Of a stretch of 64,000 nt of DNA, positions 5,301 to 13,642 are shown piece after piece. Position numbers and translations under genes: made by a program. The notes below the pieces were generated by a model that saw nothing but the letters and a program-made list of their open reading frames with translations, did not search any database and was not told the origin of the DNA. The stretch is taken from NCBI GenBank assembly GCA_965218305.1, contig OZ244617.1, forward strand, positions 3,058,983-3,122,982. Reading direction: 5' to 3'. The stretch is from an uncultured Candidatus Binatia bacterium (GTDB lineage: Bacteria > Desulfobacterota > Binatia > UBA9968 > JAJDTQ01). Position 1 is the stretch's first letter. Each line of letters starts with the position of its first letter.

Positions 5301-5554
5301 GAGCCGGGCCGGACGACCTGGACGAGGAGCGGCGCCTCTTCTACGTCGGCGTCACCCGCGCCAGAACGAGGCTATACCTCTGCCGCGCCCGCAAGCGGCG
5401 CTGGCGGGGAAAGATCCGCGAGATGGCGCCGTCCCCCTACCTCGCTGACATCGAGGAACGCCTCCTCGAACAGAGCCGGTCGCGGCACCGCGGCCAGCGG
5501 AGCCGGAAGCAGGACAGCCAGTTGGATTTGTTTTCGGAGGGAAAGTTACGGTAG
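2369..5554 (+). CDS. Fusion protein: N-terminal PHP-domain EndoQ-like nuclease (with CPACG zinc finger) + C-terminal UvrD/PcrA/Rep-family superfamily-1 helicase
   Basis: N-terminus YADLHVHSRFSRATS has the PHP-type His/Asp metal motif. Further PHP motifs are VWTPWF, NSDAHSPEKLG and a CPACGKPL zinc ribbon. Downstream are the UvrD helicase motif I (LIVAGPGSGKTRTL), a DEYQD box (CIDEYQDVD) and C-terminal UvrD_C motifs (LLTLHAAKGLEFPVVFIVG, LFYVGVTRAR). Confidence 0.7.
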   Translation: MPFYADLHVHSRFSRATSPNCDLEHLAIWARKKGIGVVGTGDFTHPAWRAELKEQLVPAEPGLFRLRPDLERAVEGQLPPACAGSLTTVRFMLSVEISTIYKKGDKTRKIHHLVYAPDFDSADRLVASLTRIGNLHSDGRPILGLDSRHLLEMTLESGPGSYLVPAHVWTPWFAALGSKSGFDAVDDCYGDLAPHIFAVETGLSSDPPMNWRVSSLDRFRLVSNSDAHSPEKLGREVCVFDTEMDYFAVRRALETGEGYGGTLEFFPEEGKYHLDGHRNCNVRLEPDETRRRDGRCPACGKPLTVGVMHRVEDLADRAPDATPPDTAGDTWGLIPLPEILGEIHRVGPKSKRVAQDYEGLLARLGPELQLLNALPLEDIGPVAPPLVAEAVARLRRREVIRDAGYDGVYGTIRLFRDAELERRARGASLFGDEPAAPVQPAAFQAAPPQAPPEPSPEVAQPMTAPWDHGTPDQLSLPVQLSPGSRDLLAGLDGDQRQAAEVADGPLLIVAGPGSGKTRTLIHRLAHLITSHGVPPGGCLAVTFTRRAADEMRSRLRALLPDLWAEVPLHTFHSLGLTILREHWNAAGLQRGFRVASEAERLQLLRDVTGLSERQARARLSAISHARRTGTPPADEKLTQAAETYRSGMETRNWCDFDDLVLRAADALESHAESRARVRERYPWVCIDEYQDVDEQQVRLIRQIVPPDGNICAIGDPDQAIYGFRGADRRFFTEFIDHFPAARVVRLSRNYRSERNIVTLSSQVIAPAASAGPSVPVLDDAPNRITLHEAASDKAEAEFVVQSLEQTLGGHSFFSIDSGRSTEAQGHDFSFSDFAVLYRTEAQAAALAEALQRSGMPFQQRSHSPLVAHPGVVALMDSLDRSPGTGTLRQRLEASCLGDEPPAADRLEAFELLKPLADACGDDLERFLSELSLGTQVDTWDPRADRISLLTLHAAKGLEFPVVFIVGCEDGLLPLSWGGAGPDDLDEERRLFYVGVTRARTRLYLCRARKRRWRGKIREMAPSPYLADIEERLLEQSRSRHRGQRSRKQDSQLDLFSEGKLR

Positions 5555-6007
5555 CGGATCAAGATCGAACAACCGCACATCTCCCGCTTTAGTAATGCGG
5601 GCAATGAGGGGTGGTTGTGTCTTCGCAACGACGCGCCGGATCTTTGGCAAGGCCTTGACAATAGCCGAGGCCATCTCGTCACCCGACATGTTACCGGAAG
5701 GCAGAATAAACGCTCGGGCCCCGCTTCGCTGGAGTGCGTGGCGCTCGACGGGTCGCCTGCGTATTCGATCGTCCTTTGTAAGGATCAGCCATCCCCGCAG
5801 GCCCACCTCCGGCAGCCATTCTTCGTCTCGGGTATTCGTCGGGAAGTGATCCTTTAGCAATGCTACCGCGATTCCCTGATGACGGAGTGCGGTTGCGATG
5901 ACCTTGTCCCCCAAGCCCTGGTCGAGAAAAAAGGTGAAATCCTCAGGCGGCGTGCCCGTATTGCTCGCAACGGATCGCTTCTTCGATTTCTGACGGCGTT
6001 CGGTCAT
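5546..6007 (-). CDS. DUF5615/Mut7-C-like PIN-fold protein (putative toxin partner of DUF433)
   Basis: FTFFLDQGLGDKVIATALRHQGIAVALL resembles the DUF5615 N-terminal motif (F-L-I-D-E-N-L, then G-h-D-V). It lies immediately downstream of, and overlapping, the DUF433 gene. The start codon is uncertain: the ATG at 6007 gives a 65-nt overlap with the DUF433 gene. Confidence 0.4.
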   Translation of the reverse strand: MTERRQKSKKRSVASNTGTPPEDFTFFLDQGLGDKVIATALRHQGIAVALLKDHFPTNTRDEEWLPEVGLRGWLILTKDDRIRRRPVERHALQRSGARAFILPSGNMSGDEMASAIVKALPKIRRVVAKTQPPLIARITKAGDVRLFDLDPLP

Positions 6008-6716
6008 AGTCGTCCGCCAGTTGTTCTACGGACTCCCCCGCCCCAAAGCGTTGATAGATCACCTCCGTGGGTATGTGTGTGCCCGCCAACACCGGGCGGC
6101 CGAAGGCGACGCGAGGATCCACCACAACTATCCGCGGCGCAACCTCAGAGGTCTCCCATGTGTTTAGTTGCAGGTCCCGGCGGGTGAACAGGTAAAGTCT
6201 CACGGCAAGTCCAGAAAGGTCCCGCTCGATTCTTCGCAGGTGAATCTCCAGAACCTTCCGAATACCAAGCTGCCCCTCCTTCGAGATATTGATCAAACTC
6301 TCGAAGCTCTCGACGAAAAGGTCCAGTCCATCTGTTTCAAGCGTCCGATCGGCCAACGGATGAGGCGATGGATGTTTTCGCTTCAAATAGTCCAGAGCCT
6401 GTCTAACCGTTAATAAAGACACGTGATGTTGTCGGCGAATCGCCGCCAGGACATAGACCTCGATCAGATTTATGAACGACAACAAACAACGGTCGGCGTC
6501 AGCAAGGTCGATCACTGGTTGGAAGAATCGGGGTCCCGTGGAGGTTGGATAACCGCGCCCTCGGACCCATGCCCGCAGGGTAGCAGCCGGAACCTGGAGA
6601 TAGTGAGCCGCCTCCGGGATGCCGTAGGCCGGCAACTCAAGTGGATCCTTGCCGCCGTAAAGATCGATCGCCGTCTTCTCCTTCAAGGGTTTGTTCCTTC
6701 CGCCAAGGCTCCCCAT
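5943..6716 (-). CDS. DUF433 domain protein (antitoxin-like partner of a PIN-like/DUF5615 protein), unusually long N-terminal region
   Basis: The C-terminal segment FGRPVLAGTHIPTEVIYQRFGAGESVEQLADDY matches the DUF433 signature (R-P-x-I-x-G-T-R-I-x-V). It overlaps the downstream PIN-like gene in the manner of toxin-antitoxin pairs. Confidence 0.5.
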   Translation of the reverse strand: MGSLGGRNKPLKEKTAIDLYGGKDPLELPAYGIPEAAHYLQVPAATLRAWVRGRGYPTSTGPRFFQPVIDLADADRCLLSFINLIEVYVLAAIRRQHHVSLLTVRQALDYLKRKHPSPHPLADRTLETDGLDLFVESFESLINISKEGQLGIRKVLEIHLRRIERDLSGLAVRLYLFTRRDLQLNTWETSEVAPRIVVVDPRVAFGRPVLAGTHIPTEVIYQRFGAGESVEQLADDYDRTPSEIEEAIRCEQYGHAA

Positions 6717-7966: not shown

Positions 7967-9598
<1,632 letters not shown>

Positions 9599-9605
9599 AA
9601 TCGGC

Positions 9606-9670
9606 GAGCCCCGATCGGGGCTGACGACAAACAAAAGGGGGGAGGACGCCTGTCCTCCCCCCTTTTGTTT
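9606..9670 (+). terminator. Rho-independent terminator of groESL (two GC hairpins followed by T-run)
   Basis: Palindrome GCCCCGATCGGGGC (9609-9622), then the stem GGGGGGAGGAC-gcct-GTCCTCCCCCC (9637-9662), followed by TTTTGTTT. Confidence 0.75.
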
Positions 9671-9792
9671 GGATTATATTTTGTTTGGGAACTTATATAC
9701 TTGACTAAAATCCTGCTTCGGGCTGTCCTTCGGTGGCGACATCAATCGCTTGGCCAGTGCGTCAGGCGTGATGTCGTCCTCGGGCCGTCGGG

Positions 9793-10533
9793 TCAACCTC
9801 CCAGCCTACTTGAAACGCTCTCTACGGCGCGCATCGCCAAAGCGACTGCTTCAGACCGCTTCGCGATCGAATCCCGCATTTCGCCATCTATGCGTTTCAC
9901 CAAGGCCACATCATCGTCCGTTTCCGGCAATGGCACAAGGACACCCGCTGCTTGTTCCTCAGTGAGTTCATCGACCACGGCACCGTAAATGGTGGCTGTC
10001 AACTGCAGTTGCCCGAAAATAGACGTCAAGAACGAACACAGGTATCCGCTCGGACACTGATCTTCGTCGGGTACTATCCGCAGGATGTGTTGGGATGCTG
10101 CCCATCCATCCCACTCCTGAGGACAAATGGTCACCCTCCCGATGGTTCCGGAACACGTCACAAGCAACCAACCTGCTTCAACAATCCACCGCTCTAGCCT
10201 CTTATGGGCGGTCTTGGAAAGATACTTCAGATCCGCGGGCCGGAAGTGGACGACGTGGCTCCCTTGTAAAAATGGGATTCCTGAATCGGGCTCGACATAG
10301 ATGCGTTTAAACCGAGGTGGAATGAAGATCCGAGACACTATCGAGCCTAACCGTTTGACTCGCATTCCCGACTTGCTCAATTGTTCGACTGCATGCAGAA
10401 CAGCCGGATTGAAGTAACTAGCATCCAACCGAAGTTCCTGCATCTCCACAATAGTTCCAGAAGAGAGGAGGAAATTCTCTACTCGTGGTTGACCTGTGAC
10501 CCTGATAACGGGGCTTGTACTGGACTTTGCCAT
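9793..10533 (-). CDS. Restriction-modification specificity subunit, HsdS-like with a single target-recognition domain
   Basis: 246 aa. The N-terminal conserved HsdS block (KRLGSIVSRI...GIPFLQGSHV) is followed by one TRD and a C-terminal helical conserved region. It starts 7 nt downstream of the methyltransferase gene on the same strand, within the low-GC island. Confidence 0.55.
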   Translation of the reverse strand: MAKSSTSPVIRVTGQPRVENFLLSSGTIVEMQELRLDASYFNPAVLHAVEQLSKSGMRVKRLGSIVSRIFIPPRFKRIYVEPDSGIPFLQGSHVVHFRPADLKYLSKTAHKRLERWIVEAGWLLVTCSGTIGRVTICPQEWDGWAASQHILRIVPDEDQCPSGYLCSFLTSIFGQLQLTATIYGAVVDELTEEQAAGVLVPLPETDDDVALVKRIDGEMRDSIAKRSEAVALAMRAVESVSSRLGG

Positions 10534-10539
10534 CGGTCA

Positions 10540-12420
10540 CTATCCTTCTGCCCAGTCTTGAAAGGCGGCTGTGACACGCGGCAGATCGTCATCTATCGTG
10601 GGCCGGTTTTCTTCATCGAGAATCGTAAGCCCTTCCGGCGTCCTCATGTACACCGGGTCTCCTCTTTTGGTTATGCCAACTGTCTTCGGGATCGCCATGA
10701 AGATATCATACTTGTCCAATGCCCCCGCCTGAGCCAACTTCGTTTCATTCAGTGTCAACCGCTGGACTATCAGAACGCTTGGATTCGGTACGCCACCACC
10801 TTCCGCGAAGGTTTCTTTTGGTAGATCAATGGATGCAACGATTCTGGCGTTGCGCAACAGCCAAGTTCGGATGAACTTCAAGCCGGGATTGTTCAAAATA
10901 CTGTCGGGGAGAACAATTGCCAGATATCCTCCCCGTTTGGCATACTTCAACGCTCCCTCTACAAATAGTTGTTCCGCCGGCATCATCTGCCGGGACTCCT
11001 TGATGTTTTGCGACGGTAATTCATAGCGCGACAACGTGTGTGGGTCATCTATCTGGGCCTGTCCGCCAAACGGGGGATTAGTCACAACAATGTCGAAGTC
11101 CCCTTGTTTGACCTTCGCCCTCGCAGTTTCGTCATCCCACTCGCTTGGCGACACCAATGAATCTCCCTGGAACACATTGGCGGACCCGTCGCCGTGCATA
11201 ACAAGATTCATTTGCGTAGTACGGACGAGAAACGGGTTGATGTCCATTCCGAAGAGGTTACGTTCAGCGAGTTCCTTGACGCGACCGCCAACGCGAGCCC
11301 GTATTTCGTCCTCCACCCCGCCCCTGGATTGCTCAAGTTCTTCTATTGTCTTGCGCAGCAAATTTAGCGTAGCAACCAGAAAGCCGCCGGTCCCACAACA
11401 GCAATCCAACACTTTGATGGATGTCAGTCGCCTACGAGGAAACAGGGAGAGCGCCATGCTTACGGTCATGTCGCAAACGTTACGTGGCGTGAAGAATTCG
11501 CCACGGTCCCCTCGCAAATTTGCCCCGACAAGTTCTTCATAGGCAGCGCCTTTAACGTCAGTGTTAGTACGAAGGAATGTGTACCGCTGCAATTCTGATA
11601 CGATATAGGCAAGTACGCGTGGGTGTAACTCTATGCCCTCCGTCTGTTTGAAGATGTACGGATATCGGTGCTTGACATCGGTAAAAAGGGGCGCAATTCG
11701 GTCCCGGACCAATGTCGTTTGGCCGGCAATTGACCTTCGTTCCTCGCTGGTCACGAAGAACCTCAGTGCGTCCATTGCCTCGTATTCGTCCAGTACCTTG
11801 CAGAAAATCAGTTTTTGAAGTTCGTGGAACGCTTCGGCCTTCTGTAGCCCTTGGTTTGCATAGATGTAGTTGTGGCAACGTCGAAGCGACGCCTTCAGGT
11901 CTATTGCGGGGGTGAGTTCTTTAAACGTGGGTGCCTTTGGTTGCATGTCGCCGTGGCGCGGTATGTCAGTCGTTTCCTCGATTCTGCCACCCTGCGCCTT
12001 CTCATAGGCTATTTTTTCAGAACCGACCCACAGGCCGTGTCGGCACGACGAGCATACGCTCATGTAACTCTTTAGCTGTTCTACCCCCTCCTTTTTGTCC
12101 TTTGTCGATACGCCCTCGCGCTTTGCTTCGACCACGATAAGGATTGAATCCTGGCGTCGCGGGCCGCCCGGCTTGAATACGACGATATCAGCGCGCTTCC
12201 GCGATGCTCCCATTTTGACCGAGAATTCAACCGCGATATCTGCTACATCGTATTTGTACTCTTCAACGAGACTTCGCGCCCATCTCTGCCGCACGTTTTC
12301 TTCAGGCGTGTCCTTTCTGAGTTGTCCAGTAATGAAACACCTAAGCTTCCCGGCTGGGATAAACGGTATAATTTCACTCATCCACGATGTCCTCGCGCAT
12401 GACGGCAGAGCAATCCCCAA
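10540..12420 (-). CDS. Fused restriction endonuclease/N6-adenine DNA methyltransferase (HsdR_N-type PD-(D/E)xK nuclease domain + gamma-class N6A MTase); Type IIB/IIG-like RM enzyme
   Basis: N-terminal nuclease motif ADIVVF...ILIVVEAKREG (D...E-x-K). SAM-binding motif I VLDCCCGTGGFLV. Catalytic motif IV IVVTNPPFGG. 626 aa in total, encoded in the low-GC island. Confidence 0.7.
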   Translation of the reverse strand: MGIALPSCARTSWMSEIIPFIPAGKLRCFITGQLRKDTPEENVRQRWARSLVEEYKYDVADIAVEFSVKMGASRKRADIVVFKPGGPRRQDSILIVVEAKREGVSTKDKKEGVEQLKSYMSVCSSCRHGLWVGSEKIAYEKAQGGRIEETTDIPRHGDMQPKAPTFKELTPAIDLKASLRRCHNYIYANQGLQKAEAFHELQKLIFCKVLDEYEAMDALRFFVTSEERRSIAGQTTLVRDRIAPLFTDVKHRYPYIFKQTEGIELHPRVLAYIVSELQRYTFLRTNTDVKGAAYEELVGANLRGDRGEFFTPRNVCDMTVSMALSLFPRRRLTSIKVLDCCCGTGGFLVATLNLLRKTIEELEQSRGGVEDEIRARVGGRVKELAERNLFGMDINPFLVRTTQMNLVMHGDGSANVFQGDSLVSPSEWDDETARAKVKQGDFDIVVTNPPFGGQAQIDDPHTLSRYELPSQNIKESRQMMPAEQLFVEGALKYAKRGGYLAIVLPDSILNNPGLKFIRTWLLRNARIVASIDLPKETFAEGGGVPNPSVLIVQRLTLNETKLAQAGALDKYDIFMAIPKTVGITKRGDPVYMRTPEGLTILDEENRPTIDDDLPRVTAAFQDWAEG

Positions 12421-12566
12421 AGATAGAGCCGGCTAGCAGGCATTGCCGTCAGTCGGCTCTTATCCGCCGTCTCTTCGGGCTTGTCGCTCTTCGGCAGCTG
12501 TAGCAGCATCCTCGCCAGTTCTTCCGGCGTGGCATCTATCGGTGGGATGGCGGCGGGCTTGGCCAT
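12378..12566 (-). CDS. Hypothetical small protein (possible regulatory ORF upstream of and overlapping the RM methyltransferase start)
   Basis: ORF MAKPAAIPPIDATPEELARMLLQLPKSDKPEE... within the island. Start codon and reality uncertain; no recognisable domain. Confidence 0.15.
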   Translation of the reverse strand: MAKPAAIPPIDATPEELARMLLQLPKSDKPEETADKSRLTAMPASRLYLWGLLCRHARGHRG

Positions 12567-12763
12567 GATCGTAACCTCGCTACTGGGATGGCTTTTCGGA
12601 TACCCCATGATGGGGAAGTGTGTCAAGAATGTGACACAAGGCTCGGGGGCAGGGCTTGACGGCCGCCGTTCAGTCCAGTATTTCATCCCCCTTTTTTTCC
12701 GGTAAGCTGGCCCGCCGCAGGGCGCCCCCCTTTGAAACCGCTCCCCCGACCATCATCCGTAGC

Positions 12764-13642
12764 CTAGGGCCCGAGGGCGCTGAACATGGCCTCCGTGTCC
12801 GGATCGCAGCCGAACCACGTGCGGAAGGACGCGGCGCCCTGGTGCACCAGCATGCCGATGCCTTCCACGGTCCAGCACCCCTGCCGCTTGGCCTCCTGGA
12901 GCAGTACGGTTTCGCGGGGCTGGTAGACGATGTCGTAAACGACCTGGCGTGGCTCTAGGAGCGCGGGGTCGAGGGGGCATCCCCGGATGTCCGGCGCCAT
13001 GCCCACCGACGTGCAGTTGATGATGAGGTCGGCCTCGCGTCCGAGGGCAGCGAACCCGGCCAGCAGGCCGGACCGGATCGTCGTGCCCCCGGCGCTTCCC
13101 TCCGCGATATCCCGCGCCAGTCTCCCGGCCTTTTCCGGATCCCGGCCCAGTATGGCGAACTCGGGCAGCGTGAACGTCTCCGTGGCCCCGCCCGTGCCCG
13201 CGCAATGGCCCCGGGCCAGCACGAAGGCCAGCGCCCGGGCCGCGCCGCCGGTTCCCAGGATCGTGACCTTCTTGCCGTCGAGCTCGATGCCGGCCTGTCG
13301 GAGGTTCAGCACGGCGCCCGGGGCGTCGGTGGTGGTCCCCATCAGCCGGTCCCCTTCCCAATAGAGGGTGTTCACGCTTCCGGTGAACCGGGACTCTTCA
13401 CTCAGACCGTCGAGATGCTCGATGACCGACTGCTTGTGCGGGATGGTCACGTTGGCGCCGAGAAAACCCATGCCCCGCAGGCCGGCGATGACCTCGCCCA
13501 GGGCCTCGGGCGGACACGGTAAGGGCACGTAGCACGCGTTCAAGCCCGCCGCCTGGATGGCGGCGTTGTGCATCACCGGCGACATGGAATGCTCCACCGG
13601 CCAACCCAGGACCCCCAGCAGTTTGGTGTTGCCGTCGATCAT
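12764..13642 (-). CDS. aroE: Shikimate dehydrogenase
   Basis: LGVLGWPVEHSMSPVMHNAA, the Lys/Asp catalytic region NVTIPHK, and an NADP-binding glycine-rich motif (ILGTGGAARA). Confidence 0.85.
   Translation of the reverse strand: MIDGNTKLLGVLGWPVEHSMSPVMHNAAIQAAGLNACYVPLPCPPEALGEVIAGLRGMGFLGANVTIPHKQSVIEHLDGLSEESRFTGSVNTLYWEGDRLMGTTTDAPGAVLNLRQAGIELDGKKVTILGTGGAARALAFVLARGHCAGTGGATETFTLPEFAILGRDPEKAGRLARDIAEGSAGGTTIRSGLLAGFAALGREADLIINCTSVGMAPDIRGCPLDPALLEPRQVVYDIVYQPRETVLLQEAKRQGCWTVEGIGMLVHQGAASFRTWFGCDPDTEAMFSALGP

Follow-up and report, generated by a model that had tools for sequence, protein, structure and literature searches.

What does a low-GC island of two genes encode in the gap between groEL and aroE of an uncultured Candidatus Binatia bacterium, and is its product complete in itself? 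The sequence analysed here, called the window below, is a stretch of 64,000 nucleotides (assembly GCA_965218305.1, contig OZ244617.1, positions 3,058,983 to 3,122,982), in which groEL lies at 7982-9598 on the plus strand and aroE at 12764-13642 on the minus strand, with two tightly packed minus-strand open reading frames (ORFs) between them. One encodes a nuclease-methyltransferase fusion, called RM here and M in its homologues, and the other a half-size specificity subunit (S). An earlier sequence-only reading had proposed that the pair is a horizontally acquired restriction-modification (R-M) system, and we have followed this up with profile searches, structure models and comparison of related loci. 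The island probably encodes a self-contained, ATP-independent two-gene R-M enzyme of the BcgI-like (Type IIB / IIC) kind, and an orphan methylase is the main alternative.

Residues are numbered on the 613-amino-acid (aa) RM protein throughout, except for Pfam domain spans, which follow a 626-aa reading from a TTG start. Conservation within RM was read from an alignment of 41 family members at 33-77% identity, gene neighbours were surveyed in 37 related loci with M identity of at least 49%, and the gene neighbourhood of the source genome is that of the window. Coordinates of the features are collected in Table 1.

The RM chain and its specificity subunit

The RM ORF spans 10540-12420 if the TTG start is taken, which gives the 626 aa first reported for it. 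Because the ATG at 12381 has a GAGGA Shine-Dalgarno sequence 8 nt upstream and an entry of the protein database, P0001, is identical to the RM protein at 613 aa, this ATG is almost certainly the start; the proposed fusion has therefore held, and its length is corrected to 613 aa. Nuclease and methyltransferase (MTase) are found in one chain, as had been claimed. The nuclease fold at the N-terminus had been left to a check with hidden Markov models, and Pfam HSDR_N_2, a family of the PD-(D/E)xK clan, matched residues 39-154 with E = 1.3e-19, while N6_Mtase (E = 2.4e-27) and Eco57I (E = 9e-17) matched residues 287-553. The motifs quoted in support of the fusion (ADIVVF...IVVEAKR, DCCCGTGGF and NPPF) are all present. 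RM has, in addition, a helical region between the two domains and a C-terminal tail of about 60 residues, and profiles of Pfam, NCBIfam and PADLOC found no helicase domain in it.

Residues expected at both active sites are conserved. D65, E85 and K87 are each kept in 40 of the 41 members and E52 in 38, and none of the members departs from NPPF or from D326 and G330 of motif I. When the members are divided into three divergence tiers, identity is 71, 54 and 36% in the nuclease domain vs 74, 56 and 33% in the MTase domain. Since the two domains are equally conserved at every divergence level, the nuclease domain, judged from this alignment, does not have the pattern of a decaying relic. In the AlphaFold model of RM (AF2), the mean predicted local distance difference test score (pLDDT) is 71, with values of 80-90 in the N-terminal domain and a weak connector. 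The modelled N-terminus runs alpha(26-40)-beta-beta-beta-alpha(93-109)-beta; its second strand bears D65 and its third E85 and K87. Helices, a Rossmann-type MTase and a lone terminal helix at 600-612 follow.

The S gene begins 6 nt past the stop codon of RM, and its product is identical to the database protein P0121 (246 aa). It matches Pfam Methylase_S weakly and NCBIfam MAD5 strongly; because the latter match covers only positions 11-223 of a 461-position profile, S has one target recognition domain (TRD), which is followed by a single helix-prone conserved C-terminal segment of about 40 residues. Most homologues of S have 245-295 aa, so half size is the normal, majority form of the subunit and not a truncation, and the half-size S with a single TRD that had been described from the letters alone is borne out.

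Only M and S recur across the 37 related loci; no helicase, translocase or partner nuclease recurs there. The half-size S gene stands downstream of M in, for example, L004, L009, L012, L013 and L034, and upstream of it in most loci at 50-58% identity. A full-size, two-TRD S is found in L001, L006, L025, L027 and L028, and S is fused to M in L007 (874 aa), L008 (926 aa) and L037 (1129 aa). In another fused protein, P0030 (893 aa), M occupies positions 4-615 with 73% identity end to end, five residues follow, and S occupies positions 621-848 with 61% identity. The two halves of the full-size S are 62% identical in L001, where the half unit is duplicated in tandem, and only 30-33% identical in L025, L027 and L028. 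These forms make up a natural series, with a presumably homodimeric half-S at one end and an S with two diverged TRDs at the other. A Skermanella plasmid and a Mycobacterium prophage also carry M and S as a bare pair. The partnership of M and S is obligate, natural fusions included.

Two other neighbours were considered as partners and rejected. A gene recurrent upstream of M was considered as a partner nuclease and proved to be an IS1595-type transposase, found in 9 of the 37 loci, and a cluster of neighbours shared by four loci, an enoyl-CoA hydratase, is host background. In L005, L010, L015, L017, L021, L031, L032, L038 and L075 this transposase, a protein of about 320 aa with a zinc ribbon and DDE, is the immediate upstream neighbour of M and is mostly encoded on the same strand. 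The RM pair may travel as passenger cargo of IS1595-family elements, a hint at one possible vehicle.

Table 1. Positions in the 64-kb window of the island, its genes, domains and boundary elements.
Feature	Position	Strand	Basis
RM gene, nuclease-methyltransferase fusion, 613 aa	10540-12381	-	ORF, Pfam, NCBIfam, identical P0001
PD-(D/E)xK (HSDR_N_2) domain	11959-12306	-	Pfam, residue conservation, AlphaFold topology
Putative catalytic residues E52, D65, E85, K87	D65 12187-12189; E85 12127-12129; K87 12121-12123	-	Conservation
Gamma-class N6-adenine methyltransferase domain	10762-11562	-	Pfam N6_Mtase / Eco57I
MTase motif I DCCCGTGGF, residues 326-334	11380-11406	-	Invariant, 41/41
MTase motif IV NPPF, residues 435-438	11068-11079	-	Invariant, 41/41
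S gene, half-size specificity subunit, 246 aa	9793-10533	-	Methylase_S, MAD5 first half, homologue alignment, P0121
Candidate leader ORF, 62 aa (102 aa in longer reading)	12378-12566	-	GAGG 8 nt upstream
Horizontally acquired island	9671-12685	.	Empty-site alignment (edges); base composition
Bidirectional terminator hairpin	9628-9671	.	20-bp perfect stem, 4-nt loop; host sequence
groEL-side direct repeat TCCCCCCTTTTGTTT	9656-9670	.	Equals 3' arm of terminator hairpin
aroE-side direct repeat TCCCCCTTTTTTT	12686-12698	.	Repeat search and empty-site alignment

Place among known enzymes and competing explanations

RM proteins of Type IIB/IIC enzymes have an N-terminal PD-(D/E)xK domain and a distal gamma-class NPPF/Y/W adenine MTase, are self-sufficient without a translocase and without a companion MTase, and read a bipartite target by means of Type I-like TRDs, each of which is matched by one RM unit (PMC4081073, PMC3874165). 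The island agrees with this description in each respect that its genes can show. The PD-(D/E)xK domain is N-terminal in the MTase polypeptide and the gamma-class N6-adenine MTase is distal to it; no ATP-dependent translocase or helicase is present in M, in the island or recurrently in the 37 loci, as the sequence-only reading had noted for SF2 translocases when it set the system apart from classical Type I; the island contains RM, S and a 62-aa ORF only; the Type I-like S, with its TRD and conserved helix, adjoins RM or, in relatives, is fused to it; and RM is homologous to a characterised Type IIB enzyme, BsaXI.

BsaXI (PDB 8w0p) is the best solved relative of RM by both sequence (phmmer E = 7e-27, residues 164-548) and fold (Foldseek E = 6e-23, 647 columns). 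One chain joins a PD-(D/E)xK domain at its N-terminus, through a multi-helical connector, to a gamma-class N6-adenine MTase; S is encoded separately alongside it, and, as in the island, there is no translocase. The BsaXI RM has 916 aa with 'knob' and 'paddle' insertions, whereas the RM of the island has 613 aa, lacks these insertions and has a short C-terminal helix; the BsaXI S has 476 aa with two different TRDs and forms (RM)2S on an asymmetric site, in contrast to the 246 aa and one TRD found here. In the 'RM + S' group of Type IIB enzymes (BcgI, BveI and others) the chain begins with a REase domain, continues through a helical connector into a Type I-like MTase and ends in a lone C-terminal helix that joins the S coiled coil (PMC11997821), and the model of our RM has the same layout of nuclease, helices and MTase (R-H-M) plus lone helix.

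BplI, BcgI and HaeIV were compared by subunit layout and target site. BplI is a Type IIB enzyme of two chains at 1:1 with the palindromic site GAG N5 CTC (PMC1892151); it resembles the island in having two genes for RM and S, and its stoichiometry and site are those predicted for RM with a half-size S. BcgI (A2B) likewise has RM and S genes and the group layout, but two TRDs in S. HaeIV is a single R-M-S chain with one TRD that recognises the symmetric site GAY N5 RTC, cuts on both sides and is inferred to act as a homodimer on this bipartite site (PMC4081073, PMC3874165). It shares with the family one TRD per RM unit, and its chain layout is that of the fused P0030, L007 and L008, while in the island RM and S are separate polypeptides. 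Single-chain Type IIG/IIL enzymes with a continuous asymmetric site (MmeI, Eco57I, DrdV) were rejected as a class for this system: S is a separate gene, PADLOC REase_MTase_IIG models score at most 80 bits, and DrdV, MmeI and BpuSI rank well below BsaXI. Fused relatives of M and S exist, but with a Type I-like TRD. Systems with a half-size HsdS, among them the AhdI type (Type IIH), recognise a symmetric bipartite site as M2S2, two half-size S chains having paired; these systems have a separate nuclease gene and an M without a nuclease domain.

RM and S most likely form a BplI/HaeIV-like (RM)2S2 enzyme on a symmetric bipartite site, an arrangement expected because each S chain has one TRD. We infer the stoichiometry, the target symmetry, the cleavage activity and the cleavage geometry as follows. 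The RM subunit would carry the cleavage site (N-terminal PD-(D/E)xK with E52, D65 and E85-x-K87) as well as the protective activity (gamma-class N6-adenine MTase with NPPF), with the helical connector linking the two and the C-terminal helix of RM docking on S. Two copies of S would pair through their long conserved helix, and the resulting (RM)2S2 complex would read a symmetric, interrupted sequence and methylate one adenine per half-site on host DNA. Incoming DNA that lacks this methylation would be cleaved at fixed positions a short way outside the site, probably on both sides. Well documented as this system is, it belongs to an already known kind and is ordinary enough that specialists would be unsurprised by it.

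The best curated matches of both proteins are found in a different system, the methylation-associated defence system (MADS), which the sequence-only reading had not considered. M matches NCBIfam MAD2 with 530.7 bits (positions 3-617 of 654) and S matches MAD5 with 178.2 bits, and both fall short of the equivalog cut-offs, which are 720 and 400, respectively. MAD2 of P. aeruginosa SMC4386 methylates the bipartite sequence TCAG N4 TCC; defence by MADS needs mad3, mad4 and mad6-8 even when MAD2 and MAD5 are intact, and MAD6, MAD7 and MAD8 are mandatory in its detection model (bioRxiv 10.1101/2023.03.30.534895). In MADS, M and S are split by mad3 and mad4, whereas in the island they are adjacent and S has half the length of MAD5. 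Since the scores are below the cut-offs and the mandatory MAD6-8 are absent among the neighbours of the island, we rejected membership in MADS.

Several observations weigh against a complete Type IIB/IIC enzyme. BsaXI is only about 21% identical to RM, and its phmmer match leaves out the nuclease domain. The N-terminal domain modelled alone gives low confidence (pLDDT 49), and its profile found no significant relative among PDB sequences. No biochemically characterised member of this specific family was found, and the best PADLOC models call close relatives 'MTase_II' or 'MTase_I' and not REase-MTase fusions. Because MADS needs its further genes, a MAD2-like M with S is not automatically a complete restriction system. 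No convincing promoter is present: a sigma-70 scan found none on the coding strand, including at the inverted repeat (12620-12637) described below. Finally, conservation of the TRD in the alignment of S homologues is unusually high for a specificity subunit: identity is 50-70% between members from Deltaproteobacteria, Anaerolineae, Streptosporangiaceae and Nitrososphaera, and long stretches, among them GAVVDE and SGT.GR, are invariant. Specificity seems to have diversified little in this clade.

The main alternative, which we consider unlikely, is an orphan M2S2 methylase that acts on a symmetric bipartite site in an epigenetic or anti-restriction role, the PD-(D/E)xK domain being non-cleaving and either a DNA-binding or regulatory module or an inactive relic. 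It would suit a pair that has no separate nuclease gene and for which cleavage is deduced, whose homologues are named 'N-6 DNA methylase' or 'type I restriction enzyme M protein' by annotation pipelines, whose best PADLOC models are MTase classes, and which occurs in a prophage and on a plasmid, common places for orphan methylases. The nuclease domain itself speaks for the other side: its catalytic triad is kept in 40 of 41 members over the whole range of 33-77% identity, it evolves no faster than the MTase although an inactive relic would be expected to decay or vanish, and Type IIB/IIC RM proteins have exactly this architecture.

Distinctly improbable is the explanation that the pair is a methylation and specificity module of a larger MADS-like or multi-gene defence system, whose effectors are lost or encoded elsewhere, so that the pair only marks self DNA or is a remnant. 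The top NCBIfam matches would agree with it, as would the extra genes beside some relatives (HNH_2, an AAA_15/21 ATPase and HNH in L001; a Clp-like protease and an unknown gene between M and S in L052). The equivalog scores do not reach their cut-offs, however, and the neighbours of the island in the window are housekeeping genes without MAD6-8. The island consists of the pair and a small ORF only, and no third gene besides the IS1595-type transposase recurs in the 37 loci. A half-size S that is the majority form and no truncation, together with the M-S fusions, argues for a two-component unit, and even L052, of a distant clade with genes between M and S, is without MAD6-8. Scarcely credible, lastly, is a degenerate Type I system whose HsdM and HsdS depend on an HsdR translocase from elsewhere in the genome: S and the core of M are Type I-like, but TIGR00497 hsdM gives 49.6 against a cut-off of 242.75, Type I M subunits have no N-terminal PD-(D/E)xK domain, and no HsdR-like gene lies near the island in the window or recurs beside homologues. 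For classical Type I R-M, which was also rejected, HsdR is missing from the island, its flanks and the related loci, and the hsdM equivalog is missed.

Three loci deserve a description of their own. L001 (526-7184) has the closest M homologue with long context (76% identity) and the full-size duplicated S; next to them are HNH_2 (360 aa), two unknown proteins (538 and 562 aa), an AAA_15/AAA_21 ATPase (412 aa) and HNH (219 aa), with DndB downstream, and the region looks like a defence island. L052 (9953-15142) contains M, an SDH-family Clp-fold serine protease, a 244-aa unknown protein and a full-size S, and in L050 (9956-15182) an 802-aa protein combines an S-like part with a spore-photoproduct-lyase-like radical-SAM domain. 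The M genes of L052 and L050 are distant and MAD2-like (33-34% identity), no MAD6-8 were found in these two loci, and they are possibly undescribed variants of methylation-linked systems.

The island and the groEL-aroE junction

The island has 3,015 bp and a GC content of 0.533, while 550 windows of the same size taken elsewhere in the 64-kb window have 0.652 +/- 0.017 with a minimum of 0.593 (z = -7.1). Along the window, GC drops from 0.63-0.70 to about 0.52 at the island. GC at third codon positions is 0.56-0.59 in the RM and S genes vs 0.82-0.92 in groES/EL, aroE, tatD, metG and holB; these genes, together with GST and PIN/DUF433, are the neighbours of the island within the window.

Relatives for comparison of the junction were found through aroE (84-88% identity), and their loci were then compared. 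In L089, the closest relative, which has the same GST-DUF433-helicase synteny as the window, the aroE-groEL gap is 88 bp with one bidirectional terminator hairpin, and in L086 it is 83 bp, again with one hairpin; both junctions are empty. A 606-bp low-GC spacer, a remnant, occupies the junction of L085. The junction of L084 contains a 4.6-kb low-GC insert with three genes (710, 213 and 515 aa), none of which has a Pfam match and one of whose proteins weakly matches the PADLOC candidate family PDC-S05. ParE/ParD are present in L091 and L092. In L090, ParDE is joined by a DDE transposase together with an OLD-type ATPase and a UvrD helicase, a combination that resembles Gabija. Because the junctions of relatives are empty or hold different cargo, the aroE-groEL junction of this lineage is a hot spot where foreign cargo settles, and the RM and S genes are not native to it. 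The sharp GC drop and the horizontal acquisition read from it have thus been confirmed, and the comparison of junctions in related genomes that had been proposed as a check has also defined the insertion boundaries.

The terminator hairpin is common to groEL on the plus strand and to the island operon on the minus strand, and is also present at the empty sites of L086 and L089. Imperfect direct repeats of 13-15 nt flank the island, and the C/T-rich repeats noted earlier at both edges are indeed there. Their core pattern, TCCCCCYTTTT, has three copies in 64 kb vs 0.04 expected, and two of these are the arms of the hairpin. Read on the aroE strand, the window matches the empty site as far as AAAAAAAGGGGGA and diverges thereafter, and beyond the island the match resumes at AAACAAAAGGGGGGAGGAC, which is the left hairpin arm; since divergence and rejoining are placed there by the alignment to empty sites, the edges of the island are those in Table 1. 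The island and its site near the terminator had been recognised correctly, but the edges first given have been corrected to these positions, and the groEL-side repeat lies inside the hairpin, not downstream of it. At the empty site of L089 one AAAAAAGGGGGA is present at the island position, and the single copy at relatives' empty sites confirms the suggested duplication of terminator-tail sequence. The repeats fit target-site duplication or recombination at a short repeat. The module probably entered the groEL terminator at an A/G-run in its aroE-side arm, and about 13 nt were duplicated in the process. No integrase or transposase is present inside the island, and tRNA-targeted integration was rejected because the 64-kb window has no tRNA.

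Upstream of the RM gene, the TGA of the 62-aa ORF overlaps the RM ATG (ATGA). Neither this ORF nor its 102-aa reading has a Pfam or NCBIfam match, and tblastn found no counterpart in 83 related loci; for these reasons it is not counted as a core component, and it is possibly a leader. A perfect 6-6-6 inverted repeat, GTGTCA-AGAATG-TGACAC, lies at 12620-12637 upstream of the RM operon; it contains TTGACA on the minus (coding) strand and is a possible promoter or operator.

On the other side of the junction, aroE encodes 292 aa here, whereas every relative at 80-88% identity has 296 aa. Near the 3' end of the gene (12764-12790, minus strand), adjoining the island junction, a substitution and a 1-nt deletion bring a TAG four codons early; the end is ccc tag gct acg here vs cct tac ggc tac ggg tga in L089. 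There is a second variable slot beside groESL, at 5546-6716 on the minus strand, where a PIN_10 protein (153 aa) and a DUF433/HTH_66 protein (257 aa) with a lowered GC of 0.51-0.60 lie between a 1061-aa UvrD/PcrA-like helicase and GST-groES. The two probably form a toxin-antitoxin-type pair. Beyond GST, relatives have Fic (L085, L086), HigB/HTH_3 (L084) or a nitrilase/HicB pair (L091) in this slot.

Meaning for the family and the lineage

The M and S family is large, compact (613 + 246 aa) and uncharacterised, and half-size, duplicated and fused forms of S are found in one lineage. This series is convenient for studying how Type IIB enzymes shift from symmetric to asymmetric targets. The closeness of the pair to MAD2 and MAD5 may also help to explain the role of the nuclease-like domain of MAD2 in MADS.

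A wider reading, improbable in our judgement, is that the RM and half-S pair is the autonomous ancestral core of the eight-gene MADS and of elaborated systems of the L052 and L001 types, and that the conserved TRD, found in homologues that include at least one archaeal (Nitrososphaera) member, represents essentially one palindromic specificity in a widely transferred family. If this is true, the family would differ in this respect from Type I and other Type IIB systems, whose TRDs are hypervariable.

For the organism itself, the island documents a clean and recent gene transfer with edges placed to the base pair in this genome, and the groEL-aroE junction is a repeated landing site of defence and addiction (toxin-antitoxin) modules in related genomes.

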